Made by a program: the position numbers and the translations under genes. Of a stretch of 64,000 bases of DNA, positions 1,609 to 30,052 are shown piece after piece. The notes beneath the pieces are model-generated. The model ran no database searches, had not been told where the DNA came from, and worked only from the letters and a program-made list of their open reading frames with translations. Positions within the stretch are counted from its first letter, which is position 1. Every line of letters starts with the position of its first letter. This DNA comes from Escherichia phage KK4: sequence record OR327750.1; one strand, given 5' to 3'.

Positions 1609-2094
1609 TTAAGTATTGTAAAACATTTGATGCAATCGCTTATATTGCCGAATCATTTGGTCAGAAAAAGAAATTTGAGTTTCAAGCCATTCAATGTACT
1701 CTGCGGCAGCTTGCATTAAATTTCCTTCATAACCATCGTTATTTTCTTGTGCAGCTAATTTAGCTAATGCGTATGAAATACGTTCACCTTGAAAATCGGC
1801 TTTAGGCTTCTGAACAACTTGATTAGTTCGCTCTACAACTTCTTCAATTTCGCCATTTTCAACGGATTCAGTATTCCACAAACACCAATACGTAATTGGC
1901 TTATCATAGATGTTAATAATCTTTCCATCAGAAAGTTCAATTTCAATAATTCCAGTATCAGGTTCTATATCATCTTCACATTCTTTTGCAAGTTCACGAA
2001 CTTTAAAGACAGTACCTGCACTAAGTTCTGGCCAGTAATTACACAGCCCTGTATCAGCACGATTAATTCTAAACCACTTATCTACTGTAATCAT
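1609..2094 (-). CDS. hypothetical protein, 161 aa from first ATG (ORF-track start is TTG); Pin protease-inhibitor candidate by size and position only
   Basis: ATG at 2094 preceded by GGAG; same length as T4 Pin; no sequence recall. Confidence 0.4.
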   Translation of the reverse strand: MITVDKWFRINRADTGLCNYWPELSAGTVFKVRELAKECEDDIEPDTGIIEIELSDGKIINIYDKPITYWCLWNTESVENGEIEEVVERTNQVVQKPKADFQGERISYALAKLAAQENNDGYEGNLMQAAAEYIEWLETQISFSDQMIRQYKRLHQMFYNT

Positions 2095-2216
2095 GTCCCA
2101 TCTCCATGTCAATTAAGTCATTTATCGTTGGTTCATTATATACTGTTTCTTCATCAGTGTAAACCGGTTCTTCCGGCTCTGGCTCTACAGTTTCCCATCT
2201 AGCCGCCCACCAGGGT

Positions 2217-4318: not shown

Positions 4319-4370
4319 GTTCTTCTCACTTTGTTAATGATTTGTACTCCGAGCCATCCTTGGCTTTAAA

Positions 4371-5372
4371 TTACTTAATTAACTGTAAAGCTTGTTCAAG
4401 ACGATCCAAGCGATTAACAGATTCTTCCCAAATCCTTTTAGCCTGCTCATATTCTTTCTGTGCTTTATTAGAAATTTCTAGAACTTCTTTATAAGCTTTT
4501 TCTAGTGCAATAACTTCTGGACGAATTTCTACCGATTCAGGTGAATCATCAAGATTATCCATTAGTTCCTCAAGGGTAGTTTCTTCTTTAGGGGTATTCA
4601 CAATTTCTTCACATTTTTGTTGATAAATTTCTTTATTAGTAGGTGAGTACGCGCACTTTACTTCACGAAGACTAACTACAATTTTATATCCTTCCCAACC
4701 GCATATATTCTTAAAAGGATAAGTATGAATATTTTCTACTGTTTCCATACAAAGTAATGCGGTCTCTAACTGACGAGTTATATCGCTAGCAATTGAGAAA
4801 AATTTATTAATGTTCTTTTGATTAGCTTCTGGTGTAAAAAATTCATAATTCACAAAAATAGCTGCTTTATTTTTATCAAGCTCATATTCTTTTATGATAA
4901 TCATATCAGAAGCCCAAGGATGGATTTGACGATAATCACCATAGCATAATTTAGAAGCTGATTTTAGAATTTGCTTCTTGAAAAGTCTAAAATTACTAAT
5001 CCAACGACGAGTAAAAATATTCTCAGGGTCTTCTTTATTATTAAGATGATAAGAATTAACATCACCGAACCAACTGTATCCTACTACATCTTTAGTTCGT
5101 TTAATTTCTTTCCCAAATTTACCAAGAATATCTTGATTAACTAAATATGAAAGAAGACGAGAACCTTTAAAAGTTTCCTTAATATCATCTTTATATTCGC
5201 GACTAGAAATTTTATGAACTTCATGAATAAATTTGCTGGAAGAAACAATACTTGCATCAGTATTATTGAGCCATTGATTGATAATGGAAATAACACTATT
5301 CTGACTAAACACAGGTTTAACTTTATCATCAATAACGCTATTGAATGATTTGATATATTCGTTACGAGTCAT
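4371..5372 (-). CDS. hypothetical protein, paralog family member 2 (333 aa from ATG with GAGGAG Shine-Dalgarno)
   Basis: Shares RxW..F(R/K)KQ(I/L)..ASxL core and C-terminal coiled coil with neighbours. Confidence 0.6.
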   Translation of the reverse strand: MTRNEYIKSFNSVIDDKVKPVFSQNSVISIINQWLNNTDASIVSSSKFIHEVHKISSREYKDDIKETFKGSRLLSYLVNQDILGKFGKEIKRTKDVVGYSWFGDVNSYHLNNKEDPENIFTRRWISNFRLFKKQILKSASKLCYGDYRQIHPWASDMIIIKEYELDKNKAAIFVNYEFFTPEANQKNINKFFSIASDITRQLETALLCMETVENIHTYPFKNICGWEGYKIVVSLREVKCAYSPTNKEIYQQKCEEIVNTPKEETTLEELMDNLDDSPESVEIRPEVIALEKAYKEVLEISNKAQKEYEQAKRIWEESVNRLDRLEQALQLIK

Positions 5373-5429
5373 ATTAATCTCCTCAGTAGAAAGTAAGAAC
5401 ATTATACCACATCCTTGTGGCAAAGTAAA

Positions 5430-6449
5430 CTAGTTTAGTGCATTTAGTGCATTGTTCAGTTTAGAACGTTGCTTCGTAAGATTTTTGACTTTTTCTTGTG
5501 CTTTTTCTAGCATCTTTTCAGCTTCTAGCACTTCATTGGTCGCTTTAACGAGTTCATCATCTACTGTCTTAAGAGACTTCTCAATCGCATCCGCGTGCCA
5601 TTTTTCAACAGGTTTAAGACTCGGATTTTCAATAGGAAGAAAATTCACTTTATTAAATTTCCATGCATCTTTATTACCTGAGCTATACATCCAAAATTTA
5701 GGATCGTTTGATGAGCAATTAGATAAATTTAAGTTATCTTGCACTTCCTGCTTTTTCTCTTGCGGGACTTCGTCCTTTCTCAAAAAATCGTATTTAAATG
5801 AAACGATCATATCAAGTTCATACGTTGTTGTATGTTCCCAATTTCGCTCAAAATGAGGTAAAATCTTAGATTGAACAGCGGCAACAACATCCATATACTT
5901 AAATGCTTCTGTCAACTGTGATTTAAGGCATTCACAAATTGAAAGAGAATTTTTTGTATTAGGTTTAAAGCTAATTCGTGCAGTTCTGTTATTTTCTTTT
6001 AATGGTCTTACTTCCATCTGAAGAGTATAACCATCAAATTTCAGGTTCTTTAAGTTAATATCAGAACCTTTTAATCGACTAGCCGTCGACAAAATTTGCT
6101 TTAATTGTTTACGGAATAGAGCAATAAATCTCCATTCAATACGATAATGATTTGGATTAAAAAATCCAGATGATAAATTAACCTTACTCTGACCAACGCC
6201 TTGAACAAATAGAGGATTTTTATAATCAATAGTTTTACCGAAATCGGTGAGCTGCTCACGAGCAGTCATTTGTGTAATATACCCCGCTTTACTAAAATGA
6301 CGTAACCATTCACTGCTATTCATATATTTAAAGTGAATATCACGATTAACTTTATCAGGGTCTAAATTATTTTGGCACAAAAATGTCATAACATCACGAG
6401 TATAGCTGGCATTACGAACCATATCTTCAATTTGAGAACGAGTTTTCAT
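5430..6449 (-). CDS. hypothetical protein, paralog family member 3 (339 aa)
   Basis: ATG with AAGGAA Shine-Dalgarno; MKTR N-terminus; C-terminal coiled coil. Confidence 0.6.
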   Translation of the reverse strand: MKTRSQIEDMVRNASYTRDVMTFLCQNNLDPDKVNRDIHFKYMNSSEWLRHFSKAGYITQMTAREQLTDFGKTIDYKNPLFVQGVGQSKVNLSSGFFNPNHYRIEWRFIALFRKQLKQILSTASRLKGSDINLKNLKFDGYTLQMEVRPLKENNRTARISFKPNTKNSLSICECLKSQLTEAFKYMDVVAAVQSKILPHFERNWEHTTTYELDMIVSFKYDFLRKDEVPQEKKQEVQDNLNLSNCSSNDPKFWMYSSGNKDAWKFNKVNFLPIENPSLKPVEKWHADAIEKSLKTVDDELVKATNEVLEAEKMLEKAQEKVKNLTKQRSKLNNALNALN

Positions 6450-7815: not shown

Positions 7816-8343
7816 TTATGCGAGTACCGTCTTTAACCGTTCTTCAAACTTCCGAAGAGTATTTTGGCGTTCAGCTCTTTGCTTTTTGTAAGTTTCAATA
7901 CGCTCTGAAATGAGAGAGTATCGTTCATTTACTGATTCTTTCATAAAATCAGGAATTTCACGAGAAGCTTTAATCTCATCAAATTTATCAATAACAGCTT
8001 GCTCTTCAGCAATTAAGTTATCATACATTAAAATATCTTTCTTGATGAACTCAATATCTTCTTGAGTTACACGAGATAATTTAGATGCTTTATCCTTTTT
8101 GTACTGTTCGTTAGTATCACGAGACCAGTGTAATGTACGATTTTTATTCGTATTTTTGTAAATTTCTACAATACCAATCTCATCAATAATAACGATCCAA
8201 TTCCAGCGGGATTTGTAAATTTGTCCTCCATCAACTGTGATTTCACCTCCGATTGAGATGTCGTTAAAGAACTTGCTTTGTGCTTCAGATTTAAATTTAC
8301 CATCATTGTAATTTACCAGGTTGAAAATATCTTTAGCGTTCAT
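7816..8343 (-). CDS. hypothetical protein, 175 aa
   Basis: ATG with GGAGGA Shine-Dalgarno immediately downstream of early promoter cassette. Confidence 0.55.
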   Translation of the reverse strand: MNAKDIFNLVNYNDGKFKSEAQSKFFNDISIGGEITVDGGQIYKSRWNWIVIIDEIGIVEIYKNTNKNRTLHWSRDTNEQYKKDKASKLSRVTQEDIEFIKKDILMYDNLIAEEQAVIDKFDEIKASREIPDFMKESVNERYSLISERIETYKKQRAERQNTLRKFEERLKTVLA

Positions 8344-8372
8344 TTTGTGTTCCTCCGTAGTTGATAGTTGTA

Positions 8373-8401
8373 TAGTACCACAAAGGAACAGTCTTGTAAA
8401 C
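8373..8401 (-). promoter_or_regulatory. T4-type early promoter (-35 GTTTAC, 17-18 nt spacer, -10 TACTAT)
   Basis: Minus-strand GTTTACA...TACTATAC, ~25 nt upstream of ATG at 8343. Confidence 0.55.
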
Positions 8402-8403
8402 CA

Positions 8404-8706
8404 CTAAAAGAAACTTCTTTCACAATTTTTTCCACTGAACCACGCGCTCACCGCTTTCTTAGTCTCAGGAGCAGTGTTATCCATAAACCATTCAAAAGCA
8501 GCCTTTTTATGATTCTGGAGGGCTTCTCGGGCTTTAATCTGCTCACGGTCTATTAACACTAACATATGAGCCTTTCTTGTCACCATGGGCTTCTTATGAT
8601 TTTTTGAATACTCCCAATCATTTGTCCATCGCATCGTTGTTGCGAATTGAAGTACAGCTTCTTTAATTTTAGTTTCGTAAATTTCACGAGCCTTTGAGTA
8701 TAACAT
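8404..8706 (-). CDS. hypothetical protein, 100 aa (start moved to ATG after GGAGG)
   Basis: First ORF-track ATG lies inside the Shine-Dalgarno sequence. Confidence 0.45.
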   Translation of the reverse strand: MLYSKAREIYETKIKEAVLQFATTMRWTNDWEYSKNHKKPMVTRKAHMLVLIDREQIKAREALQNHKKAAFEWFMDNTAPETKKAVSAWFSGKNCERSFF

Positions 8707-8807
8707 CACTACCTCCATTTACCAGTTTAATTCTAGTCATCTTTTTGATGGCAGTCCATATAATCTATTTCTGAACTGCCTTTTTGTCATAGAAGTTCTC
8801 TTATGAA

Positions 8808-9776
8808 TTATTTCAGAAGAGTAACCTCAGCAATTTCTTCCCAACCGTTTTTGTCGGTCATAATAAAGTCAGCAAGATAAAGAGCAGTACGCAGTGAAAC
8901 ATTGCGTAAACGATTAACATTAACTTTCATCCATGATAATGCTTTATAAGTTTCTTCATCAGAAAGACCGCGCTTTTGCATCATGTCAGTTGAAAGAATA
9001 ACATCTTCAACCCTGACCATAATTTCTTCATTAGTGTGAACACCCAAATCCAAATAAACTGAGCGGGACACTAATGCTTGTAAGTGTGGAGCAAGTTTAG
9101 TACCACGGTCTAATTCGCGGTCAATGTCAACGTTTGTGATAAAAACAATCGTTCCTTTAAATTCAAACTCACGGTCAATGCCTTTTTCTTCTAAGTAAGA
9201 AGATGCAGTGCTCCAGCAGACTTTACGGGTCTCTCCAGTGTCCAGAGCAGCTTTCAGAAGATTAAGAATGTCCATATCAGAGAAAACATCCACATCATCA
9301 ATCAAAAGGACAGAATTCTCTTCACGATTATTCCAAAGCTGCTCATAAAGACCAATACCAGAGATTTTACCATTAATGCTTTTATATTCAATGTATCCAT
9401 TATCATTTGCTTTATTTAAAGCTTTATCTAAAGAATACGTTTTACCAATACCTGCTGCGCCAGAGATAATTAATGAACGAATATTTCCATTAATAATACC
9501 ATTCGTCATCATTCCCATAACATTAAATCTTTTATTAATGCGGGTTTTCATATCTTCATATGATTCTTTAACTTCTTCAACTTTTACACCATCATATGAA
9601 ATATCTGATTTGTAAACCCAAACACCGCGACGTTTACCGTCAATTTCAACAAAAACTTTACCATCTCCTTGTGCATCTACCGGAGCATTATCTGGGAACC
9701 ATTCGCCTAAGAGCTCAAAAGTTCCAGAGATTTCTTTACCGAAGTAGATACCCTTATTGATAGTTACAGTTTTCAT
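8808..9776 (-). CDS. P-loop (AAA-like) ATPase, 322 aa
   Basis: Walker A GAAGIGKT, Walker B LLIDDVD, TIVFITN sensor-like segment; start moved to ATG (MKTVTINKG) after GGAG because the longer ORF reads through the promoter. Confidence 0.65.
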   Translation of the reverse strand: MKTVTINKGIYFGKEISGTFELLGEWFPDNAPVDAQGDGKVFVEIDGKRRGVWVYKSDISYDGVKVEEVKESYEDMKTRINKRFNVMGMMTNGIINGNIRSLIISGAAGIGKTYSLDKALNKANDNGYIEYKSINGKISGIGLYEQLWNNREENSVLLIDDVDVFSDMDILNLLKAALDTGETRKVCWSTASSYLEEKGIDREFEFKGTIVFITNVDIDRELDRGTKLAPHLQALVSRSVYLDLGVHTNEEIMVRVEDVILSTDMMQKRGLSDEETYKALSWMKVNVNRLRNVSLRTALYLADFIMTDKNGWEEIAEVTLLK

Positions 9777-9800
9777 TTTATTCTCCAAATCCGTATCAGT

Positions 9801-9830
9801 TGATAGTTGTATAGTACCATAAAGCTTTAT
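9801..9830 (-). promoter_or_regulatory. T4-type early promoter cassette upstream of ATPase gene
   Basis: GTTTAC-N18-TACTAT; A/T-rich UP-like element; same 21-nt -10/leader segment as at 8360 and 24045. Confidence 0.55.
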
Positions 9831-9863
9831 GCTTGTAAACCGTTTTGTGAAAAAATTTTGAAA

Positions 9864-9891
9864 TAAAAAAAAAGGGAGCCCGAAGGCTCCC
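9864..9891 (-). terminator. rho-independent terminator after nucleotidyltransferase gene
   Basis: Hairpin GGGAGCC-ttcg-GGCTCCC then 9-nt U-run on minus strand. Confidence 0.7.
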
Positions 9892-9894
9892 TTA

Positions 9895-10908
9895 TCATTT
9901 ATAATAACTTCGGTGGTTTTCAAGATAAACCCTCTCAAGGAAGTCATCCCAAAAACCCATGTCTACTTTTTGCTGCATACCGTTCTTAGAAGCTTCAATG
10001 GATGCTGCTTCTACTTGATCGACCACATCTTCCAAAAACTCTTGAACAGTTTTAAATGGGTGTTTACCCAGCTTCACGTCGAGAATAAATGGAGCGTCTT
10101 GAAGTGGATAGACTAAGTCACCAGTTTTGTAAATTTCCAATAGTTGGAGTCCACCACGACAAGCATGACTCAGAGCTTTCCAGTCAATGCCCTCATTCGC
10201 TTCAGCCTTACGAGCACGTTCGCCGTATTCAGCATCTAATTTGTTCAGTGACTGCTTAAGCTCAATAAGAGAAAGTGTTGTCTGATATTTACGACCCAAC
10301 ACAGTGTAGAACGTTTGTGGACCGGTTTTCTCATGATTATGGAATACCCATTCACAGAATTCGTTCTCTGGAAGACGATGCTTAATATCTTCAACTTTAG
10401 TGCGACGCTGCTTAATGGAACCGTCTTCTTGATAATCAACCCACTGGTCAGGGATTTGATTAACTACTTTCAATACATCACGTAATGCGGCCAAACGAGA
10501 ACCCTTGACACCGTATTTAGAAGCTTGCTTGCGGACATATCCTAAATAGGATTTCATGTTAGTTGTATAAAACCGTGAACGATTGTCTTGGATAAATTTC
10601 CATACATCAGGTAAATCAGATTTAACCACTAGTTCAGGTGGAGTGTGGAGCATATCCAATGCTACAGTTTCACCATCTGCAGCTAATTTAAAGAAATACT
10701 TAAGACTGTATAGTTCATGGTCAATATCATCTTTAGTGTTTTTAGATGATGTGTTGTTCGTGTTTTTACTCATATGCTCTTTAACATTTCCGATAAGAAT
10801 ATCGCGAGCAGGAGGAACAAAGATTTCTTTAAAATCTACATCAGATTCTGGAGTAGAAGTTCCATAAAGATGACTACCAAAATAGCTTTTCATTACTGTT
10901 TTCATCAT
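9895..10908 (-). CDS. Pol-beta-superfamily nucleotidyltransferase-fold protein, 337 aa
   Basis: N-terminal FGSHLYGTSTPESDVDF fits hG[GS]x9-13DhDh; followed by minus-strand terminator. Confidence 0.55.
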   Translation of the reverse strand: MMKTVMKSYFGSHLYGTSTPESDVDFKEIFVPPARDILIGNVKEHMSKNTNNTSSKNTKDDIDHELYSLKYFFKLAADGETVALDMLHTPPELVVKSDLPDVWKFIQDNRSRFYTTNMKSYLGYVRKQASKYGVKGSRLAALRDVLKVVNQIPDQWVDYQEDGSIKQRRTKVEDIKHRLPENEFCEWVFHNHEKTGPQTFYTVLGRKYQTTLSLIELKQSLNKLDAEYGERARKAEANEGIDWKALSHACRGGLQLLEIYKTGDLVYPLQDAPFILDVKLGKHPFKTVQEFLEDVVDQVEAASIEASKNGMQQKVDMGFWDDFLERVYLENHRSYYK

Positions 10909-11366
10909 TCAGCCTTATATTCAATAACAGGACATACTTTAGCTTTACGCGCTTTTAAAAATTCGACGATAATAGATTTCTTTGGTTGAATAGGAGGTAA
11001 ACCTTTATACGCCCTATCAATATTTTCTACATGTAAAGCATAATCCTTTTTCCATTTATAATCTTTATATTTTTCATGCAGTTGTGCAGGAATAACAAAT
11101 GAACCAATAATAAGTAAAACAAGCAAAATAGCAAGTATAAATGCTGATGGAATAAGAGTCCATAAACTACCAAAAATAAGCCATTTCTGCATAATTTCTG
11201 CGCAGATGATAGTTAGACCTGCGAGTATAGTACATCCGAAAAAAGAAACGAAAAATGTAGGAATAACAATAGACCAAAAATACGCGCACAGTGTCTTAGG
11301 TCGTTTCCATTCATCATTAAACATTTTGAATAATTTATAGTGCCAAGAGCTTTCATTAATAATCAT
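10905..11366 (-). CDS. predicted multi-pass membrane protein, 153 aa
   Basis: Three hydrophobic segments; overlaps downstream gene start by 4 nt. Confidence 0.55.
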   Translation of the reverse strand: MIINESSWHYKLFKMFNDEWKRPKTLCAYFWSIVIPTFFVSFFGCTILAGLTIICAEIMQKWLIFGSLWTLIPSAFILAILLVLLIIGSFVIPAQLHEKYKDYKWKKDYALHVENIDRAYKGLPPIQPKKSIIVEFLKARKAKVCPVIEYKAE

Positions 11367-11368
11367 AA

Positions 11369-11890
11369 CTATCCTTTCATTGAAGGTGTAACAGTTGTTA
11401 AATACTTAATCATAGCTTCAGCTTCTGATTTTGATAATGAAATTTCTCCATTGTTTTGACGAATAGAAATAAAATCCGGATGACGATCACCACCAGCCTT
11501 TAAAACACACATATAAGTATCAGTTTCATCTTCAATATTTGAAATGATTGAAGCAGTTCCACATGAATGTGGTTTTTGATAAATCAATGCAGCTTTTCTT
11601 CCACCGTTTGACTGTTCATAAACTTTTAACACATCAAACAAATCACTTCTTTTATCAATAGCTAAGATGTTGTTTTCATCTTCAATGTTAAATCCTTCGG
11701 ATACTTCATAAAGTGTCACCCATAAATCACCTATATCGATAGTAGCATTTCCTTTTCCACGACTTTCAAGAATATGACAAATTTTCTTGATTTCGTCATA
11801 ACTCATTTTAATAATATCATCTCCTTGAATAAGGAAGATGTCATTTTTAAATTCAACACGAATTAAACCGCTTTCACTTGAAATAAACAT
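11369..11890 (-). CDS. hypothetical protein, 173 aa (paralog of next gene upstream)
   Basis: C-terminus ISLSKSEAEAMIKYLTTVTPSM resembles VTFTKDEAIALKTYLDSVIPTM of neighbour. Confidence 0.55.
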   Translation of the reverse strand: MFISSESGLIRVEFKNDIFLIQGDDIIKMSYDEIKKICHILESRGKGNATIDIGDLWVTLYEVSEGFNIEDENNILAIDKRSDLFDVLKVYEQSNGGRKAALIYQKPHSCGTASIISNIEDETDTYMCVLKAGGDRHPDFISIRQNNGEISLSKSEAEAMIKYLTTVTPSMKG

Positions 11891-11896
11891 ATTTCC

Positions 11897-12454
11897 TCAC
11901 TTTGAAATCATAGTTGGAATGACAGAATCAAGATAAGTCTTTAGCGCAATAGCTTCGTCTTTGGTAAATGTGACAATATGTGATCGAAAATCATCAATTT
12001 GACGAATAGTTAAGACATCTCCCTCTTCATAACATTTTGATACATTTAAAAGAGTTTCATCATTCTGATTGCAATCGTTAGTAATAATAGCATTGCAATT
12101 TTTGAGCCATTTTAAACTATGTTTTCTTTCATTAGAATAATAAAAATATTTAATCTTAGCTATAAAACTATCCCAATGAATAACTGATAAACACATTGAC
12201 TCACTTTTAATATTAAATCCTGGGCATGAAGAATAAAAATGAATTTTGTGCTCATCATTGATGCTTACTATTTTATCAGTATAAGGATATTCAATTTGGG
12301 TTAAATGAATGATTTCACTAGGCGTAAAATACAGCATATCGTCTTCTTGCGTCAAATGATACATGTTATTTACTTTTTCTATAGCCAATTCACCAAAAAG
12401 CGGACTAACTTCTAATACTAATCGTTTCATATTGATTCTCTTCGACTCACTCAC
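11897..12454 (-). CDS. hypothetical protein, 185 aa from GTG (177 aa from first ATG)
   Basis: GTG start preceded by AAAGGAG; paralog of 11369-11890. Confidence 0.5.
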   Translation of the reverse strand: MSESKRINMKRLVLEVSPLFGELAIEKVNNMYHLTQEDDMLYFTPSEIIHLTQIEYPYTDKIVSINDEHKIHFYSSCPGFNIKSESMCLSVIHWDSFIAKIKYFYYSNERKHSLKWLKNCNAIITNDCNQNDETLLNVSKCYEEGDVLTIRQIDDFRSHIVTFTKDEAIALKTYLDSVIPTMISK

Positions 12455-12456
12455 AA

Positions 12457-12561
12457 TTACATACTCCTTTGAATAATATCAATAATGTTGTTCACCAGAT
12501 TATAAGTAAACATTGGGTAATTATATTGAATCATCACATACACAACAAACAAAATTTTCAT
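12457..12561 (-). CDS. small hydrophobic peptide, 34 aa (below ORF-track cutoff)
   Basis: Manual translation MKILFVVYVMIQYNYPMFTYNLVNNIIDIIQRSM; AAGGAG then ATG directly after early promoter. Confidence 0.3.
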   Translation of the reverse strand: MKILFVVYVMIQYNYPMFTYNLVNNIIDIIQRSM

Positions 12562-12589
12562 TCTCTTCTCCTTGGCAGTTGACAAGATT

Positions 12590-12619
12590 ACTATACCATA
12601 ACCTTGCCAACTTGTAAAC
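12590..12619 (-). promoter_or_regulatory. T4-type early promoter
   Basis: GTTTAC-N18-TATAGT on minus strand, upstream of small ORF 12457-12561. Confidence 0.5.
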
Positions 12620-13185: not shown

Positions 13186-13373
13186 TATTCCACCACATAT
13201 GAAAGAGAGAATATTGCACACGCCATATGAGTTGCAGCTTCATCACACATATCATAACGTTTCTTAAGAAGTTTTTCAAGTTCTTCACTGGTAACTTCAT
13301 CCATGTCGACGAAAAAATCACCATTAATGATGACGTAGATATTTCCTTCTTGATTAAGTGCTTCAATTTTCAT
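13185..13373 (-). CDS. hypothetical acidic protein, 62 aa (start at MKIEALNQ after GAGGAG)
   Basis: Longer ORF-track start lies inside the promoter cassette. Confidence 0.45.
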
Positions 13374-13400
13374 GATGTTCTCCTCTTTATCCGATGGTTG

Positions 13401-13430
13401 TATAGTATCACAGCTCAAATGGAAAGTAAA
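13401..13430 (-). promoter_or_regulatory. T4-type early promoter
   Basis: GTTTAC-N18-TACTAT, downstream of terminator 13442-13463. Confidence 0.5.
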
Positions 13431-13441
13431 CCGGTAAAATG

Positions 13442-13463
13442 AAAAAAGTCTCCCGAAGGAGAC
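13442..13463 (-). terminator. rho-independent terminator
   Basis: Hairpin GTCTCC-ttcg-GGAGAC then U-run on minus strand. Confidence 0.65.
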
Positions 13464-13468
13464 TAATG

Positions 13469-17105: not shown

Positions 17106-17567
17106 TCATTGAGTTTTAATTACTGCTTTAGAAGCCTTTCCTGGTAAACGACGACTGTTGATAATTGCCATCCTGCATTGAAGTGACGGGTCTTTGAACT
17201 TCTCGTTAGGTTTACAAACTGTAAATCCAAGCCAAAGATTTCCATCTGTGATTTCTAAACGCCCAGGACGATATTCAATCCCATCAATAAAATCCTCATC
17301 AATATCAGGGCGTGGAGGCATACTCAAGAATTCATTAACTTCTAAAACATGGTCTTTTATTTTATGGAATAATTCAAAAACATATGTCTCATCAATCTCC
17401 CGTTGAATTGCACGATCAAGAAGATGCTGAGAATATTTTAGATGAAACGATGAGACCCCTGCTGCTTTTGATGCCTCACGAATCTCATTGTTAATTTGAC
17501 GAAACTCCGACTCAAAGTGACGACGGAGCTTATTTCGACGGATAAAAACTTCTGTGTTGATAGTCAT
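17106..17567 (-). CDS. regB: endoribonuclease RegB
   Basis: 153 aa, MTINTEVFIRRNKLRRHFESEFRQINNEIREASKAAG... matches T4 RegB from memory; consensus early promoter upstream. Confidence 0.9.
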   Translation of the reverse strand: MTINTEVFIRRNKLRRHFESEFRQINNEIREASKAAGVSSFHLKYSQHLLDRAIQREIDETYVFELFHKIKDHVLEVNEFLSMPPRPDIDEDFIDGIEYRPGRLEITDGNLWLGFTVCKPNEKFKDPSLQCRMAIINSRRLPGKASKAVIKTQ

Positions 17568-17594
17568 GTTATTCTCCTCTTAACTGATAGAAAA

Positions 17595-17624
17595 ATTATA
17601 CCACAGTCAAGAGGAAAAGTAAAC
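17595..17624 (-). promoter_or_regulatory. early promoter of regB
   Basis: GTTTAC-N18-TATAAT (consensus -10), ~28 nt upstream of regB ATG. Confidence 0.65.
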
Positions 17625-19619: not shown

Positions 19620-19764
19620 TTTATTCTCTCTAAATTTGGGCCATTCCATGGCGCATGAATTGTCCATTTCTGTATTTACCCATTACCGCACTTGGGCTCG
19701 ACCTTATTACAGGTTGGTGGGAATCCCTCACAGAATCATGAGGTCCAGGTTATTCCCATGTTAT

Positions 19765-20181
19765 TTAAATGTAAATATTTTTGCCGTAATACTTATACCA
19801 GTGTGGCTTCATTAAAATTTTTTCATCGAGTCGTTGTTGACTCAACTTAATAGCTGATTTGCATGGATTATAATCATTTTTCCATTCTACTGGAATATCG
19901 CTGATGTCAGGAACTTCAGTATCTTTTATACTGAACCCGCGTTTTAAGCATTCCGTTATAATGTCCGATTGACGCTTTCGCAAAAATTCTAACTTATCGT
20001 AAAAGAAAGTAACATGACCAGAACCTAAAATAAATTTAGAAGATATTTTAAAATCTTTAACGCGCTTACCGTTTGCCACATGCTTACGAACTATACCAAA
20101 AACACGCGGCAATTCACGGTATTCTGCGATTAAATGTTGATCAGCAAGTTCAGATACTAAAGTCAAATTAATACGAGTCAT
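19765..20181 (-). CDS. denV: endonuclease V (pyrimidine dimer DNA glycosylase)
   Basis: 138 aa; [37 protein letters not shown] matches T4 DenV from memory. Confidence 0.9.
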
Positions 20182-20206
20182 TTTATCCCTCCAAGTAACT
20201 GTGAAT

Positions 20207-20236
20207 ATACTATCACAATTCTAGGAGAAAGTAAAT
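20207..20236 (-). promoter_or_regulatory. early promoter of denV
   Basis: ATTTAC-N18-TAGTAT on minus strand. Confidence 0.5.
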
Positions 20237-20240
20237 AGCT

Positions 20241-20771
<531 letters not shown>

Positions 20772-23054: not shown

Positions 23055-23648
23055 TTATTTCAGAGAATTAATGTATTCCTGAACATCGGCAGAGGTAGTT
23101 TCAACCCCAGAAATATTACCGTTAAAGGTTTCAACTCGAGCAAGGGTATCTTCAATATCAACCTTAGTCAGTGCTGCAATTTCAACTACATCATCAGCAG
23201 TACTAATTCCAAGGGCATTTGCTGCACGAGTTTCACGGATATATTCCAATTTAACCGCAAGTTCTTGACGAGCATCATCTAACTCAACTACTTTCTTGGC
23301 GATTTCAATTCGCATTTCAGCATAACCGTCAGCCTTAGTAGTCAACTGCTCAGCTGTTCGACGATATAGTAAACCGAGTTTAGCATGCATTGTTACATCT
23401 TGGCCTTCGGAAAGAAGTTTACGAATTTCACGCTCTTTTGATTCGGCCTGTCGATTCTTTTCGATAACAAGTTCACGAATACGTTTTTCTTCGTTAATAG
23501 ATTTAACAGAAGCAGTTTTTAGATCTTTAATTTTATCAAGTAGTTTTGCTGCTGCAGCAGTATACTGTTCTTCGACAGATAGATTTTTAGCCATAGCAGA
23601 ACCAAGTTTAGTGCGAATAAACTCAACAATTTTCTTCAGTGTGTTCAT
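23055..23648 (-). CDS. long alpha-helical coiled-coil protein, 197 aa (PspA/IM30-like architecture, tentative)
   Basis: Charged heptad-rich sequence throughout; own early promoter; stem-loop downstream. Confidence 0.5.
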
Positions 23649-23719
23649 AGTATTTCCTTAGGTTAATTGAGATTTAAAATCCGTAGGAGTATAATACTCT
23701 ATCGTCAAATTATAGGCTC

Positions 23720-23749
23720 ATAATATCTCAATCATGAGCCTGCGTAAAC
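23720..23749 (-). promoter_or_regulatory. T4-type early promoter upstream of coiled-coil protein gene
   Basis: GTTTAC-N18-TATTAT; overlaps 8-bp inverted repeat AGGCTCAT/ATGAGCCT. Confidence 0.5.
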
Positions 23750-24013
23750 TTATTTCATATTATTGAAATATTCTTCTGCGATTTCGTCGTTATCATGGTA
23801 AACTTTAGAAGACAGTTTAACATAACCTTCTGCTGTGAACATATTAATCACAACTTTTACAGTATACCACTGACCGTCTTCATTACCCATTACTGCGTAA
23901 GTTTCAAACATCGGATGATCAGGACCGATAACTTTAATATCATTCACTGTACGACCGAAATCTTCTGAAACGCATTTCATAAAGAAGTTGAACAGTTCGC
24001 CGTAATTATCCAT
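23750..24013 (-). CDS. hypothetical protein, 87 aa (start at MDNYGELF after GGAG)
   Basis: Longer ORF-track form reads through the promoter cassette. Confidence 0.45.
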   Translation of the reverse strand: MDNYGELFNFFMKCVSEDFGRTVNDIKVIGPDHPMFETYAVMGNEDGQWYTVKVVINMFTAEGYVKLSSKVYHDNDEIAEEYFNNMK

Positions 24014-24056
24014 TTCATTCTCCAAGTTGTTTTCTGTATCAGTAGTTGATAGTTGT

Positions 24057-24086
24057 ATAGTACCATGGAAGAACAGAGATGTAAAC
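24057..24086 (-). promoter_or_regulatory. T4-type early promoter cassette
   Basis: GTTTAC-N18-TACTAT with conserved 21-nt leader. Confidence 0.55.
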
Positions 24087-24209
24087 AGTTTTGTGAAAAA
24101 ATTTTTAGGGAATTCTAGGGCAGGGATGGGCAATTAAAGGATAGGATAATATATTATAAAGGGTATAAACTAAATGATGCCTAGAGAGGTCCAGAAAGGC
24201 CTAGATACC

Positions 24210-24234
24210 AAAAAGCCCTATCATTTAGATAGGG
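24210..24234 (-). terminator. rho-independent terminator after IPIII-like gene
   Basis: Hairpin CCCTATC-N5-GATAGGG then U-run on minus strand. Confidence 0.6.
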
Positions 24235-24242
24235 ATTTAAAA

Positions 24243-24806: not shown

Positions 24807-24896
24807 TTAAAATCCTTGAAATAATTTATCGGTTGGTTATTAATTATTTATTACTTTGTTACTATCCGTAACAGCGTTATCCGAGTGATTCAAACT

Positions 24897-24923
24897 AAAA
24901 AGCCCCAACCTTTCGGTCGGGGC
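24897..24923 (-). terminator. rho-independent terminator after IPII-like gene
   Basis: Hairpin GCCCCGACC-gaaa-GGTTGGGGC then UUUUU; identical copy at 25454-25480. Confidence 0.7.
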
Positions 24924-24931
24924 TAAGAATG

Positions 24932-25443: not shown

Positions 25444-25451
25444 TATTTATA
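25444..25451 (-). promoter_or_regulatory. T4 late promoter motif TATAAATA upstream of IPII-like gene
   Basis: Exact octamer on minus strand ~39 nt upstream of ATG at 25405. Confidence 0.5.
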
Positions 25452-25453
25452 CC

Positions 25454-25480
25454 AAAAAGCCCCAACCTTTCGGTCGGGGC
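25454..25480 (-). terminator. rho-independent terminator at end of tRNA/small-RNA transcription unit
   Basis: Same hairpin and U-run as 24897-24923. Confidence 0.7.
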
Positions 25481-25487
25481 TAAGCCT

Positions 25488-26157: not shown

Positions 26158-26233
26158 TGGTCGAGGCAGTAGGGATCGAACCTACGACCTAGGACTTAGA
26201 AGGTCCTTGCTCTTCCTTCTGAGCTATGCCCCG
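26158..26233 (-). tRNA. tRNA-Arg (anticodon UCU)
   Basis: Manual cloverleaf: 7-bp acceptor, T-loop TTCGATC, anticodon loop CTTCTAA, encoded CCA. Confidence 0.8.
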
Positions 26234-26237
26234 TAAT

Positions 26238-26313
26238 TGGGGTGACCGATGGGAGTCGAACCCATGACTACGAGAATCACAATCTCGAGTTCTACCAACT
26301 GAACTACGGCCAC
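26238..26313 (-). tRNA. tRNA-His (anticodon GUG)
   Basis: Manual cloverleaf: anticodon loop TTGTGAT, discriminator C73, encoded CCA; position -1 is not G. Confidence 0.7.
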
Positions 26314-26426
26314 ATTAATACCTACTCCAACAATCAAGATGTCTTCACACGAAATTAAGAGAAGAGTGATCAGTTCAACCCTATAATCGCGTCAAGTAGA
26401 TATTAATGTGACAGTTGTCACAAATT

Positions 26427-26501
26427 TGGCGGACGTGATAGGATTCGAACCTATAACCAATCGCTTAACAGGCGATCGCTCTGCCATTGAGCTACACATC
26501 C
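26427..26501 (-). tRNA. tRNA-Asn (anticodon GUU)
   Basis: Manual cloverleaf: anticodon loop CTGTTAA, T-loop TTCGAAT, encoded CCA. Confidence 0.75.
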
Positions 26502-26505
26502 AAAT

Positions 26506-26592
26506 TGGTGGGGAGTGATGGAGTCGAACCACCCGAGTCGCAATGACAATGGATTTACAGTCCACACCGCTACCTCTACGGGATAACTCCCC
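26506..26592 (-). tRNA. tRNA-Tyr (anticodon GUA), type II with long variable arm
   Basis: Manual cloverleaf: anticodon loop CTGTAAA, 87 nt, encoded CCA. Confidence 0.7.
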
Positions 26593-26605
26593 TTAATTCT
26601 TAATT

Positions 26606-26680
26606 TGGTGGCCCTGGGTGGAATTGAACCACCATCTGGCGATTATGAGTCGCTTGCTTGAACCTTCCAGCTACAGGGCC
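26606..26680 (-). tRNA. tRNA with CAU anticodon (Met, or Ile2-type AUA reader)
   Basis: Manual cloverleaf: anticodon loop CTCATAA, T-loop TTCAATT, encoded CCA. Confidence 0.7.
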
Positions 26681-26681
26681 T

Positions 26682-26757
26682 TGGTGCTGATTGACGGAAT
26701 CGAACCGCCGACCTTCTCATTACAAGTGAGTTGCTCTACCTACTAAGCTAAATCAGC
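26682..26757 (-). tRNA. tRNA-Thr (anticodon UGU)
   Basis: Manual cloverleaf: anticodon loop CTTGTAA, perfect 7-bp acceptor, encoded CCA. Confidence 0.8.
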
Positions 26758-26762
26758 AAAAC

Positions 26763-26852
26763 TGGCGGAGGCGATAGGATTTGAACCTATGAGTCGCCGG
26801 AGCGACTGCCGGTTTTCAAGACCGGTGCATTAAACCACTCTGCCACGCCTCC
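26763..26852 (-). tRNA. tRNA-Ser (anticodon UGA), type II
   Basis: Manual cloverleaf: anticodon loop CTTGAAA, long variable arm, encoded CCA. Confidence 0.8.
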
Positions 26853-26854
26853 AG

Positions 26855-26928
26855 TCTCCATACAAGGATTTGAACCTTGGACCTCCTGATCCCAAATCAG
26901 GCGCTCTACCAAACTGAGCTACACGGAG
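26855..26928 (-). tRNA. tRNA-Pro (anticodon UGG), CCA not encoded
   Basis: Manual cloverleaf: anticodon loop TTTGGGA; 3-prime end abuts tRNA-Ser by 2 nt (dimeric precursor arrangement as in T4). Confidence 0.8.
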
Positions 26929-26938
26929 TAAATTAAAT

Positions 26939-27012
<74 letters not shown>

Positions 27013-27017
27013 AAATT

Positions 27018-27104
27018 TGGTGCGAGAAGTGGGACTCGAACCCACAAGGAAATCATTCCGCAGCATTTTAAGTGCTGTGCCTTTACCAATTTGACCATTC
27101 TCGC
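27018..27104 (-). tRNA. tRNA-Leu (anticodon UAA), type II
   Basis: Manual cloverleaf: anticodon loop CTTAAAA, long variable arm, encoded CCA. Confidence 0.8.
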
Positions 27105-27105
27105 G

Positions 27106-27178
27106 CTGGGAATAAAGGACTCGAACCTTTGCATCCTGGAATCAAAATCCAGTGCCTTACCAACTTGGCTAATTCCCA
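27106..27178 (-). tRNA. tRNA-Gln (anticodon UUG), CCA not encoded
   Basis: Manual cloverleaf: anticodon loop TTTTGAT; abuts tRNA-Leu (Gln-Leu dimeric arrangement as in T4). Confidence 0.8.
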
Positions 27179-27970: not shown

Positions 27971-28156
27971 TTATTCACCTTTAGAAATTTTATCCATAAC
28001 AATAGCGATTAAACCAATTAAAAATGCTACTACAAGTGAAAAAACATTTTCTGCTGTAGTCAATAATCCGCATATAAATCCAACAAACATTGAAAAACTA
28101 AAAGCGGAAGCAGAAATTGCAATAGCAACATTTCGAATTAATTCACAACGTTTCAT
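27971..28156 (-). CDS. small membrane protein, 61 aa
   Basis: Two hydrophobic segments; GGAG then ATG directly downstream of early promoter cassette. Confidence 0.5.
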   Translation of the reverse strand: MKRCELIRNVAIAISASAFSFSMFVGFICGLLTTAENVFSLVVAFLIGLIAIVMDKISKGE

Positions 28157-28184
28157 TTTATTCTCCTCGGTAGTTGATAGGGTA

Positions 28185-28214
28185 ATAGTATCACAACTAA
28201 AACCCTATGTAAAC
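28185..28214 (-). promoter_or_regulatory. T4-type early promoter cassette
   Basis: GTTTAC-N18-TACTAT upstream of 61-aa membrane protein ORF. Confidence 0.55.
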
Positions 28215-28232
28215 AACTTTGTGAAATATTTA

Positions 28233-28520
28233 TTACAAAAGATTTTTAGCAATAATCTTGAGATGTGCCGCAGAAATGTGTTTAGCTTTAAACAACGCAG
28301 TTTCTTCAGCAGGAGAGATAATGATTGTAGCACCATCCTTTTTAGCAGACCACCCATCACCTAGGTAAACAGTACCTTTGATTTCTTCGCCATCAACCAA
28401 ACTAATCATTGGTTTACCTTCTCGTCCTTTATTTGCTTTAATAACTTCAGAAGTAAGAGTAGCTTCAGTAATAGTAGAAACCGGGGTAGTTGTAGAAGTA
28501 AATTCTTTGAAAGTTTTCAT
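28233..28520 (-). CDS. ipI: internal protein I (capsid-packaged, injected)
   Basis: 95 aa; MKTFKEF... capsid targeting sequence; matches T4 IPI from memory. Confidence 0.85.
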   Translation of the reverse strand: MKTFKEFTSTTTPVSTITEATLTSEVIKANKGREGKPMISLVDGEEIKGTVYLGDGWSAKKDGATIIISPAEETALFKAKHISAAHLKIIAKNLL

Positions 28521-28550
28521 TTTATTTTCCTAATTAATTTTGATGAGATA

Positions 28551-28580
28551 ATAGTATCACTACCTCATCAACGTGTAAAC
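28551..28580 (-). promoter_or_regulatory. early promoter of ipI
   Basis: GTTTAC-N18-TACTAT ~30 nt upstream of ipI ATG. Confidence 0.55.
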
Positions 28581-29290: not shown

Positions 29291-30003
29291 TATAGTACCT
29301 TTAGTGTATTTTTAATTTTAGAAAAAAGTTCTTCAAGAGAACCATCGTTTGTAATTACTAAATCGCCATCACGAATTGGCAATCCAGCTTCTGTAATATG
29401 AGTATCATTGGATTTTTGACCAGGACGAACTACATGAATTACTGTAGCACCCATCGCCCTAGCCGCATCCATTTCATGATCTTGACGAGTATCAGGAACG
29501 ATATAATAATCATAACCTGAGTTAAATTTATCAAGATAATCTAAAGCAAATAATTTTACCCAATACATGCGGTCGAAGTTATTAACAATCAAATCCGTAC
29601 CTAGGGCTTGCATCAGACGACGGACTGACCATTGATCTTCAATATTATTTATAACGTCAGCAATCTTGTTAAATGCTACGAAATTAACTGCGTCATCAAA
29701 AACAAACACACCTTTAATTGGGCTTTTACTATTAAGATAGCAAAATGCTTGTTCCATAATCGTAATTACTTCTAATTTAGTCAGATTTAAATTAGTCTCA
29801 CGATCATAGTCAATTCCTTCAAACTCTTTACGAGTTAAGCAAGGATAGTCAGTGTTTGCTGCAAATACACCCCATGCATAAGCCAATGCATCCTTAATAG
29901 GACCAGCAAGTTGATATTTAACTGCAGAATAATTATTCATGATAAAATCTGCAGTAGTATCTTTTCCACTACGCTTTACACCACTTAAAAAGATTAGTTT
30001 CAT
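29290..30003 (-). CDS. 1: deoxynucleoside monophosphate kinase
   Basis: 237 aa; P-loop GVKRSGKDT; matches T4 gp1 from memory. Confidence 0.9.
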
Positions 30004-30052
30004 ATGTTTCTCCTCAAATTTAGTTAAGATTATAACACATGAAACTGAAGCA

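Follow-up and report, generated by a model that had tools for sequence, protein, structure and literature searches.

The analysed window is a stretch of 64,000 nucleotides from Escherichia phage KK4 (sequence record OR327750.1). It derives from a Tequatrovirus, is 100% identical to Escherichia phage GADU22 over positions 8000-12000 and is colinear with positions 44-78 kb of T4, from which the source phage diverges by a few percent. The minus-strand early region, running from nrdC to gene 57, takes up its first ~31 kb, and an Rfam search of positions 1-32000 returned tRNAs only. Within this region, the focal cassette lies between the homologues of nrdC.11 and nrdC.10. The nrdC.11 homologue ends with a stop codon at 9895-9897 and is followed by an intrinsic terminator hairpin, for which the terminator scan gave a stem of nine pairs (six G-C) closed by a 4-nt loop and followed by a T-run; the fold of the 73 nt preceding the focal -35 box has -20.4 kcal/mol, and the orthologous terminator is annotated in the e11/2 and fPS-2 records. 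An AT-rich stretch (80% A+T in the 25 nt upstream of the -35 box), a promoter core with an 18-nt gap and TGG immediately before the -10 box, and a leader with a Shine-Dalgarno (SD) sequence complete the cassette. Transcription from it is predicted to begin at ~9804, on the A of CTATCAAC. The coding sequence of the nrdC.10 homologue is 8808-9776; the longest ORF, 8808-9947, crosses the terminator and the promoter, and the real start is 9776. Over the 81 nt of window 9765-9845, the region of the focal cassette (9776-9893) is 100% identical to the T4 record.

Table 1 Features of the early-promoter cassettes in the window. Predicted 5' ends are approximate and lie ~7 nt past the -10 box.
Feature	Coordinates	Strand	Predicted 5' end	T4 counterpart	Details
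Intrinsic terminator hairpin after nrdC.11 homologue	9872..9893	-			AAGGGAGCC-TTCG-GGCTCCCTT, then nine T
AT-rich UP-element-like stretch, focal promoter	9841..9871	-			TTTCACAAAACG adjoins -35
Focal early promoter core	9811..9840	-	9804	55384	-35 GTTTAC 9835-9840; -10 TACTAT 9811-9816
Focal leader	9774..9810	-			SD GGAG 9783-9786; nrdC.10 homologue ATG 9774-9776
nrdC.8 homologue early promoter cassette	8341..8401	-	8365	53943	shares the 21-mer; spacer pairs with SD region, TGTTCCTTTGTGG / CTACGGAGGAACA; hairpin -17.5 kcal/mol, z -4.7
e.8 homologue early promoter cassette	24011..24086	-	24050	70696	21-mer
trna.4 homologue early promoter cassette	28154..28214	-	28178		stem ATAGGGT/ACCCTAT around -10
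ipI early promoter cassette	28518..28580	-	28544		stem TTGATGAGGTA/TATCTCATCAA around -10, z -4.1
e.6 homologue early promoter cassette	23646..23749	-	23713	69967 (Pe69.9)	stem AGGCTCAT/ATGAGCCT around -10, z -3.3; TAA stop directly before, second-promoter remnant after
denV chimeric cassette	20179..20236	-	20200		ipIII-type promoter joined to denV SD and ATG; -35 ATTTAC, -10 TAGTAT; stem AATTGTGA/TCACAGTT
regB early promoter cassette	17565..17624	-	17588		15 nt after -35, TTTTCCTCTTGACTG, pair with SD-containing CAGTTAAGAGGAGAA; -21.4 kcal/mol, z -4.9
mobD.5 homologue terminator and early promoter cassette	13371..13464	-	13395	58780	terminator 13447-13464, AGTCTCC-TTCG-GGAGACT and T-run
mobD.2 homologue early promoter cassette	12559..12619	-	12583	57990	-10 TATAGT; 15-bp stem around -10, -19.0 kcal/mol, z -4.5
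nrdC.4 homologue early promoter cassette	5370..5430	-	5394	50973	small hairpin within spacer
Promoter-like site inside 49.1 CDS	2092..2164	-	2128	47452	70 nt upstream of pin ATG

Cassettes of the same form recur through the early region (Table 1). The motif GTTTAC-N18-TAnnAT has ten matches in the 64-kb window, every one of them on the minus strand, where 0.29 would be expected by chance and no shuffled sequence gave more than two; including two one-base variants, the early-promoter sites number 12. The original prediction of at least nine minus-strand sites with a GTTTAC -35 box and a -10 box after an 18-nt spacer is thus borne out. Four sites that it had added to its main series are real as well: 17595-17624 and 23720-23749 match exactly, 12590-12619 has the -10 box TATAGT, and 20207-20236 has ATTTAC at -35. 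We found two additional sites of the same form, at 5401-5430 and 2135-2164. The 21-nt segment GTTGATAGTTGTATAGTACCA, said to be identical at three sites, does occur in three exact plus-strand copies (none expected in shuffles), but the second copy lies at 9799-9819 and not at 9789-9809. The top family in an unbiased repeat search was the cassette itself, in five 54-nt copies. Counts of the cassette come to 12-13 copies, confined to the first 31 kb of the window, and relaxing the motif across all 64 kb brought up no site on the plus strand and none in the late-gene half. A weaker GTTTAA variant of the motif starts at 30058.

The -35 hexamer is GTTTAC at 11 of the 12 sites and ATTTAC at one. After the 18-nt gap, the -10 box reads TACTAT, TATAAT, TATAGT, TATTAT or TAGTAT, and the four bases before it are GTGG, GTGA or ATGG in ten of the 12. 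The 25 nt upstream of the -35 box contain 60-84% A+T at ten scored sites and 40% at 2164, with the cassette at 23749 left unscored. Downstream of every site, at 55-101 nt and in the same orientation, an SD and ATG open a genuine ORF; the distance from the start of the -35 box to the ATG is 55-60 nt in eight of the 12 and 64-101 nt in the other four. Some similarity extends upstream of the promoter core: the block TTTCACAAA(A/G) of the focal AT-rich stretch also precedes the cassettes at 24086, 28214 and 28580, and the e.8 and focal cassettes have the upstream block TTTCACAAAAC in common. The site at 2164 is the least certain of the 12, lying inside a coding sequence and downstream of the 40% A+T stretch, although it has a T4 counterpart and recurs in all five genomes listed for it among those compared.

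Early promoters of T4 have a -35 box GTTTAC, a GT-rich stretch before the -10 box, TAnnnT at -10 and an AT-rich upstream region (PMC1524935; PMC2988021); GTTTAC occupies -36 to -31 (PMC1524935), and these promoters are sometimes termed UP/-35/TGn/-10 promoters. The sites in the window have the same -35 box, spacing, GT/TG segment, TAnnnT and AT-rich upstream region, and show no substantive difference from T4 early promoters. The consensus derived from the T4/PST pair, TTTACW-N17-TAYWAT (PMC4122927), fits all sites except for the -10 boxes TATAGT (12619) and TAGTAT (20236), the 18-nt gap becoming 17 nt when it is counted between the hexamers TTTACA and TAnnAT. T4 has counterparts with the same motif for all 12 sites, before the same gene, although T4 has another cassette in front of e.6 and of denV. 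The T4 GenBank record carries no promoter features, and T4 promoter names could be tied to a few sites through other papers: the regB early promoter (PMC3014915), and Pe57.9 and Pe69.9 (named in PMC6024815), the mobD.2 counterpart lying near the literature promoters Pe57.9 and Pe57954. The public annotation of Yersinia phage fPS-2 has 'predicted early promoter' or 'terminator' at most orthologous positions, and both at the mobD.5 spot; the focal nrdC.10 site has no promoter feature there.

We regard the sites as very probably ordinary, strong early promoters of the T4 type, some of which would also serve as recombination homology for the exchange of gene modules. Their promoter activity is read from the sequence and from T4 orthology. 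The sigma-70 RNA polymerase of the host would transcribe from each site as soon as infection begins. From 5' to 3', a cassette would consist of the AT-rich stretch, the -35 box, the gap, a GT-rich or TG segment, the -10 box, the start, the leader, a GGAG-type SD and the ATG, and transcription is predicted to begin at a purine 7 nt past the -10 box, usually the A of CTATCAA. In the minus-strand early region, transcription would in this way be restarted at intervals of 0.4-4 kb, and the UUCG-loop terminators before the cassettes at 9840 and 13431 would close the upstream unit. As catalogued T4 early promoters in a close relative of T4, the sites have little discovery value; their use lies in annotation, with 12 early transcription units with predicted starts and a corrected start codon for nrdC.10.

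The cassettes also contain stem-loops of several kinds. Several of them had been described as directly preceded by a terminator hairpin; this is the case for the cassettes at 9840 and 13431, but not for the other ten of the 12. Six cassettes other than these two have a stem-loop bracketing the -10 box, and for these six stems together with the spacer hairpin at 5430 z ranges from -2.4 to -4.9. At 20236 a stem is visible in the sequence, and the folds gave no convincing stem there, at 24086 or at 2164; a hairpin at 24216-24234 lies ~130 nt upstream of the 24086 cassette. The -10-bracketing stems are unlike intrinsic terminators because no T-run follows them. We had considered these stems as a new element and dropped the idea, as overlap with the -10 box is already part of the published description of the promoter-early-stem-loop (PeSL) cassettes of T4-type phages, whose stem-loop has five published positions including 'overlapping the -10 box' and 'upstream of the -35' (PMC2839356). 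In 84 non-redundant promoters, spacer-to-leader complementarity exceeded that of mismatched pairs (p = 7e-4). That all nine arm differences across three sites of the window are G-U wobbles had suggested that the stems must act in sense-strand RNA. We withdrew this proposal, since sense and antisense duplex energies in these 84 promoters did not differ (Wilcoxon p = 0.97) and stems allowing A-C pairs are as long as stems allowing G-U pairs. No signal came from testing for pairing in a fixed register relative to the -10 box; the stems occupy different registers. Per-site p-values for contiguous stems against shuffles have little power in such AT-rich sequence.

Both the cassettes of this kind and their link to gene shuffling are already known, having been published in 2010 and 2014 (Arbiol 2010, PMC2839356; Comeau 2014, PMC4122927). 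When six relatives were compared, five cassettes (9840, 20236, 23749, 28214 and 28580) proved to be places where modules had been inserted, lost or exchanged, and the junction sequences at the first four support cassette-linked events. The nrdC.11/nrdC.10 slot is empty in the window and T4 but occupied in other Tequatroviruses, by two ORFs, by three or by a modA-like gene, each inserted module carrying its own promoter. In ECML-134, 493 nt with two ORFs and a second promoter stand in place of window 9789-9799 (11 nt), which is a replacement and not a clean crossover between two cassettes; in ECO07P3 the modA-like module has its own promoter and terminator. Among database records, ~346 show the window-type junction (empty slot) and ~131 the ECML-134 type (two ORFs), and many break off at window position 9800. 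At the 28214 cassette, ECML-134, e11/2 and 121/2022-2B have an extra internal-protein gene with GTGATACTATTACCCTATCAA on either side, so that 21 nt of promoter core are directly repeated, and the single cassette of the window reads as the crossover product of these two copies. The ipI gene is swapped in EL and e11/2 between the 28580 cassette and the next (window 28231 to 28488). The gene e.7 is absent from the window and present in five of the six relatives (not in ECML-134), with breakpoints at 23664-23750. At the denV cassette, T4 has an additional 1094 nt holding ipIII and ipII, and a four-way alignment with the T4 ipIII, ipII and denV promoters identified the cassette of the window as a chimera, joined over only ~5 nt of microhomology. 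The nrdC.8 promoter of e11/2 carries the variant TACCCTATCAA of another cassette family, which looks like a patch exchange.

The reading of the cassettes as sites of modular shuffling is thus supported by the published T4-type precedent and by the variable focal slot. Near-identical stretches of 20-100 nt shared by the cassettes would provide short homology for the phage recombination system, so that some of them may be points at which promoter-led modules enter, leave or are exchanged; a causal role of the cassettes in recombination is proposed. Modules change at five of the cassettes, but most cassettes keep the same downstream gene without any change of partner in the seven genomes, preceding it in five to seven of the 7 Tequatroviruses, and the excess of indels is weak against junction-based nulls. 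Eight of 21 indel events touch a cassette zone. The excess of indel edges at cassettes has p = 7e-4 against raw sequence, 0.03 under a one-junction null and 0.42 under a two-edge junction null, so statistical support beyond the tendency of indels to fall between genes is weak.

These numbers bear on the most serious alternative, which we hold to be possible but the less likely account, namely that the sites are early promoters and nothing more, alike through selection for strength and close to indels only because viable indels are intergenic. The constancy of most downstream genes and the loss of the enrichment under the two-edge null agree with it, as does the fact that neither the focal indel nor the denV chimera is a clean homologous crossover. 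Other indels of the early region are tied to homing endonucleases, paralogous genes or terminator repeats, and four or five of the 21 events involve homing endonucleases or an intron instead of a cassette. Against this account, the internal-protein module at 28214 lies between direct repeats of the promoter core, the likeness of the 9840 and 24086 cassettes goes far past the promoter consensus (window 9774-9863 and the T4 copy of the e.8 cassette are 77% identical over 99 nt), and the TACCCTATCAA variant in e11/2 has the appearance of an exchanged patch. Moreover, PeSL-PeSL recombination generating mini-circles was demonstrated experimentally in RB49 and phi1 (PMC2839356).

It is very improbable that a site-specific recombinase or homing endonuclease acts on the repeats and that their promoter likeness is secondary. 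Genes such as mobD, segB and I-TevII do occur in this region of the relatives, indels are frequent, and Arbiol 2010 left open a possible helper protein (PMC2839356). However, the joints fall at differing points of the cassette (the start-site motif, the SD, upstream of the -35 box), no endonuclease gene stands beside the cassette-linked indels, and the motif matches RNA polymerase elements position by position. Even less credit can be given to MotA-dependent middle promoters. About half of T4 middle promoters likewise have a sigma-70 -10 box after TG or GT, as is often seen here (PMC2988021), but in middle promoters the MotA box (a/t)(a/t)(a/t)TGCTTtA, centred at -30, replaces the -35 box (PMC1524935; PMC2988021), and every site has GTTTAC or ATTTAC at -35 and none has GCTT. 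A chance AT-rich pattern is practically negligible as an explanation: the genome is low in G+C and a generic sigma-70 scan gave no promoter excess (67 sites against 70 expected), the excess being confined to the T4-specific pattern, but ten exact matches were reached by no shuffle, all matches lie on the coding strand of the early region directly before start codons, and the counts of the motif and of the 21-mer already refute it.

As T4-type early promoters with a probable second role in module exchange, the cassettes agree closely with PeSLs. Their layout is that of a PeSL, in which an AT-rich region and an early promoter with a stem-loop lead to the SD and ATG. Copies recur in variable regions, some of them beside indels that distinguish close relatives, and stem-loops are found both across the -10 box and ahead of the -35 box. 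Unlike in RB49 and phi1, where terminator activity as well as the mini-circles is experimental, the Tequatrovirus cassettes are known from sequence. Compared with T4, denV stands under an ipIII-type promoter, and e.7, ipII and ipIII are missing from these loci in the window. In T-even phages the internal-protein (IP) loci were described as polymorphic by Repoila et al. 1994, as cited in PMC4122927, and IP genes are similarly swapped, added or lost at window 28174-28488 and 19762-20252. As far as the citing paper relates them, the conserved flanks of IP loci include the promoter and first codons, as in the window, and the description covers IP loci only; the nrdC.11/nrdC.10 and e.7 slots are not IP loci. 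Modules such as the modA-like one of ECO07P3 also resemble lambdoid morons in being single genes with their own promoter and terminator (Hendrix et al. 2000, via PMC2839356). Morons, in the summary given there, have no conserved linker flanks and are often opposite to the surrounding transcription (PMC2839356), whereas the Tequatrovirus modules are co-oriented with their neighbours and have cassette sequence in common. The nrdC.11/nrdC.10, e.7 and internal-protein slots are places of accessory-gene turnover in Tequatroviruses.

At regB and nrdC.8, the 3' arm of the hairpin is the SD itself. For regB, the arm pairs best with its own partner in nine of 11 distinct orthologues (permutation p ~5e-5), and after independent de-duplication the own-partner test gave p = 0.0002. 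This comparison of own- and cross-partner duplexes was limited to regB because there were too few diverged orthologues for the others (nrdC.8, nrdC.4, mobD.5, mobD.2, e.8 and trna.4). With the regB promoters aligned by MAFFT, RNAalifold gave no predicted pairs, the arms being out of register in that alignment. In T4, a hairpin that masks the ribosome-binding site on long transcripts and holds an internal promoter is known for the genes e, soc, 49 and I-TevI (PMC3014915). The SD of regB and nrdC.8 forms the 3' arm as in those genes, but the internal promoter is early here and late there, and a hairpin masking the regB or nrdC.8 SD is not described in that review. Some early promoters might lie inside an SD-masking hairpin, with an anti-SD after the -35 box and their own SD as 3' arm, a suggestion that we make with considerable doubt. 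Only read-through RNA could form the regB and nrdC.8 hairpins, because the 5' arm is upstream of the gene's own start. In RNA read through from upstream promoters the SD would be masked and GGAG shielded from RegB, and RNA begun at the gene's own promoter would be without the 5' arm and have an open SD, carrying the principle of the e, soc, 49 and I-TevI genes over to early promoters. The lack of a sense/antisense difference in the wider promoter set speaks against this suggestion, and the stems overlapping the -10 box are in any case covered by the PeSL description. The covarying, SD-paired hairpin around the regB promoter is the one point that merits a bench test; its pairing is kept through different arm sequences in orthologues whose RegB proteins are 58-100% identical.

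The first ~31 kb of the window is assigned to the minus-strand early region by its sequence: positions 8000-12000 matched Escherichia phage GADU22 at 100% identity and hundreds of other Tequatroviruses at 97-98%, and T4 44.2-78.0 kb was colinear with window positions 1-32600 at 90-98% identity, with a handful of indels between them. The gene run comprises nrdD/49/pin, nrdC, mobD, tk, regB, denV, e, the tRNA cluster, ipI and genes 57 and 1, and a sign flip of GC skew at ~31 kb marks the onset of the plus-strand late genes.

The motif GTTTAC-N18-TAnnAT was found 10 times, on the minus strand every time (0.29 expected). Relaxing the -10 to TAnnnT added a site at 12590-12619, and allowing one mismatch in the -35 brought in the ATTTAC site at 20207-20236 and, from 30058, a weaker site with GTTTAA; the relaxed scan of the window uncovered no plus-strand sites and none in the late half. 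The expectation of at least nine minus-strand GTTTAC-N18 promoter sites was borne out, with 12 sites when those at 12590-12619 and 20207-20236 are counted. An unbiased repeat search returned the cassette as its top family (five 54-nt copies). The SD and ATG of a genuine ORF followed each of the 12 sites (pin, nrdC.4, nrdC.8, nrdC.10, mobD.2, mobD.5, regB, denV, e.6, e.8, trna.4 and ipI), with 55-60 nt from the -35 start to the ATG at eight sites and 64, 70, 73 and 101 nt at the remaining four. The 21-mer GTTGATAGTTGTATAGTACCA had three exact copies (8360-8380, 9799-9819 and 24045-24065) and none in 100 shuffles; the original prediction had listed all three, with the second misplaced by 10 nt at 9789-9809. 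The weaker site (30003-30058; GTTTAA, 18 nt, TATAAT with GTGT before it) lies 55 nt 5' of the ATG of a gene 1 (dNMP kinase) homologue.

T4 carries the same pattern before the same genes, and the focal promoter, which precedes the nrdC.10 homologue, was 100% identical to a T4 record over 81 nt. The promoter names Pe57.9, Pe57954 and Pe69.9 come from PMC6024815. The fPS-2 record has 'predicted early promoter' and 'terminator' features at most orthologous spots, with no promoter feature at the focal site, and the e11/2 record has terminators at orthologous spots. No MotA box was present at any of the sites. The T4 counterparts, the focal identity, the public annotation and the absence of MotA boxes all support the assignment of the cassettes as early promoters.

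Early promoter cassettes, named by the window coordinate where the -35 starts, with T4 counterparts, and anatomy of the focal cassette
Feature	Window position	Strand	T4 position
Cassette 28580	28580	minus	73939
Cassette 28214	28214	minus	73572
Cassette 24086	24086	minus	70696
Cassette 23749	23749	minus	~69967
Cassette 20236 (T4 ipIII promoter)	20236	minus	66498
Cassette 17624	17624	minus	62797
Cassette 13431	13431	minus	58780
Cassette 12619	12619	minus	57990
Cassette 9840 (focal; whole cassette 9774-9893)	9840	minus	55384
Cassette 8401	8401	minus	53943
Cassette 5430	5430	minus	50973
Cassette 2164	2164	minus	47452
nrdC.11 stop codon	9895-9897	minus
Focal terminator hairpin, then nine T	9872-9893	minus
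AT-rich stretch ending in TTTCACAAAACG, between hairpin and -35		minus
Focal -35 GTTTAC	9835-9840	minus
Focal -10 TACTAT, TGG just before	9811-9816	minus
Predicted start of focal promoter, within CTATCAAC	~9804	minus
Focal SD GGAG	9783-9786	minus
nrdC.10 homologue ATG	9776	minus

Reading from the ATG at 9776 gives 322 aa matching T4 nrdC.10. The longest ORF (8808-9947, 379 aa, ATG at 9947) is an artefact that crosses both terminator and promoter; the SD, T4 and all relatives favour the start at 9776.

Neither the promoters nor the idea of shuffling at cassettes is new to the literature. Arbiol et al. 2010 described the promoter-early stem-loop (PeSL) cassette, which combines an AT-rich region and a sigma-70-like promoter with a stem-loop, SD and ATG. 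The stem-loop may sit between the two boxes, overlap the -35 or the -10, or lie upstream or just downstream. The same study demonstrated promoter activity, terminator activity and mini-circles from recombination in RB49 and phi1. Comeau et al. 2014 carried the idea to the T4/PST pair (consensus TTTACW-N17-TAYWAT). The original observation is real, with small corrections, and its interpretation is right.

Gene turnover was compared with T4, ECML-134, fPS-2, EL, e11/2 and 121/2022-2B. At the focal slot, ECML-134 has 493 nt in place of window 9789-9799, carrying two ORFs and a second promoter cassette; homology ends directly past CTATCAA and restarts at the SD. In an IMG/VR contig (L004) the slot includes a third ORF as well as a third cassette, and in ECO07P3 a promoter-modA-like-terminator module sits between the terminator of nrdC.11 and the focal cassette. 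The phage database held 346 records with the window-type junction and 131 with the ECML-134 type, and partial matches end at window 9800. At 28214, three relatives carry an extra internal-protein gene between two copies of GTGATACTATTACCCTATCAA, and the single cassette of the window reads as the crossover product of those copies. EL and e11/2 carry a swapped ipI between cassettes 28214 and 28580. At 23749, e.7 is absent from the window and a second-promoter remnant is present, and at 20236 an ipIII-type promoter is fused to denV, with ipIII and ipII absent from the locus (20179-20236). The denV segment (19762-20194) is replaced by an internal-protein gene in ECML-134, fPS-2, e11/2 and 121/2022-2B.

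The proposal that the cassettes are sites of modular shuffling fits the gene turnover at these five places (focal slot, 28214, ipI, 23749 and 20236), but most partner genes are fixed and the enrichment depends on the null. Eight of 21 distinct indel events touched a cassette zone. Relative to a raw-sequence null this is a clear excess (p = 7e-4); a one-junction null leaves it marginal (p = 0.03), and it does not exceed a two-edge junction null (p = 0.42). Homing endonucleases or an intron lay behind four or five of the 21 (I-TevII, mobD, segB and others); one event lay between the paralogues nrdC.4 and nrdC.5, and one involved a repeated terminator. Among the seven genomes, the regB, e.8, mobD.5 and nrdC.4 cassettes never changed partner where the gene was present, and neither did the nrdC.8 cassette except for a patch exchange in e11/2. 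Therefore, the cassettes are mainly conserved promoters, with a subset at slots that turn over.

Other differences were also seen. fPS-2 lacks 2112 nt (4325-6438) that include sections of the nrdC.4 and nrdC.5 homologues and the 5430 promoter; the 19-nt flank overlap suggests deletion by recombination between these similar-sized neighbours. Differences at 558-561, 10909-11872 and 30692-30702 are linked to mobile endonuclease genes. The window has no nrdD intron with I-TevII, other sequence replaces mobD, and the window also lacks the homing endonuclease gene that fPS-2 and e11/2 have between genes 3 and 2. Eleven tRNA genes (Rfam) were found at 26161-27178 (minus strand), compared with eight in the T4 cluster; the window lacks segB, and relatives differ in what surrounds the cluster.

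Several cassettes had been described as directly preceded by a terminator hairpin. A GC-rich hairpin with a T-run lay directly 5' of the promoter at two only, the focal cassette and the mobD.5 cassette (hairpin at 13447-13464), and the description fails for the rest. The loop of both terminators is C(UUCG)G, and hairpins of this type have reportedly long been known from T4 intergenic regions (Tuerk et al. 1988). Six cassettes (28580, 28214, 23749, 17624, 12619 and 8401) form a stable stem with its 5' arm in the spacer and its 3' arm past the -10 box, and 5430 has a small hairpin within the spacer; the fold energies of these seven were 2.4-4.9 SD below shuffles. The -10-bracketing stems were rejected as a new element, since the published PeSL classes already include stem-loops at this position. 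Among 84 non-redundant promoters from 44 loci, spacers paired more strongly with their own leaders than with others (mean -8.05 vs -6.10 kcal/mol, p = 7e-4), 23% lying past the control's 5th percentile. Sense and antisense duplex energies of the 84 did not differ (p = 0.97), which leaves a role of the stems in RNA unproven.

Three further terminator hairpins (24201-24240, 24888-24927 and 25445-25484; 687 and 557 nt apart) lie upstream of the tRNA cluster, each closing off one small module of ORFs. Two are near-identical copies of AGCCCCGACC-GAAA-GGTTGGGGCT plus a T-run, and the third has diverged. This area has 1214 nt extra relative to T4 and 659 nt extra relative to four other Tequatroviruses, and the indel flanks share an overlap of 28-30 nt, which recombination between terminator repeats would be expected to give. 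In more distant phages, the RB49-like contigs L029-L035, ~60-100 nt 5' of position 10001, a GC-rich stem brackets the -35 of the nrdC.10-homologue promoter and the T-run after it forms the spacer, which amounts to a terminator overlapping the promoter.

The clearest case of own-leader pairing is the SD-pairing hairpin of the regB cassette (17565-17624), where the early promoter lies within a hairpin whose 5' arm is an anti-SD sequence directly after the -35. In nine of 11 distinct orthologues, the 16 nt past the -35 hexamer form pairs with the leader that contains the SD; RegB protein identity in this set spans 58-100%, and the arm sequences vary. The arms covary across genera (regB orthologues in L006-L038, loci from other phage genomes), with a mean own-partner energy of -15.7 vs -8.9 kcal/mol for cross pairs (permutation p ~5e-5; p = 0.0002 when repeated with independent de-duplication). 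The hairpin resembles those of genes e, soc, 49 and I-TevI, in which the ribosome-binding site is masked on long transcripts; however, the internal promoter is late in those genes (PMC3014915). The regB promoter hairpin is the sole item that might repay a bench experiment. Promoters before nrdC.10 orthologues showed a weaker own-partner effect (p = 0.005), with no SD-pairing stem in the window's own nrdC.10 promoter, and the nrdC.8 promoter (8341-8401) has the same hairpin layout as regB.
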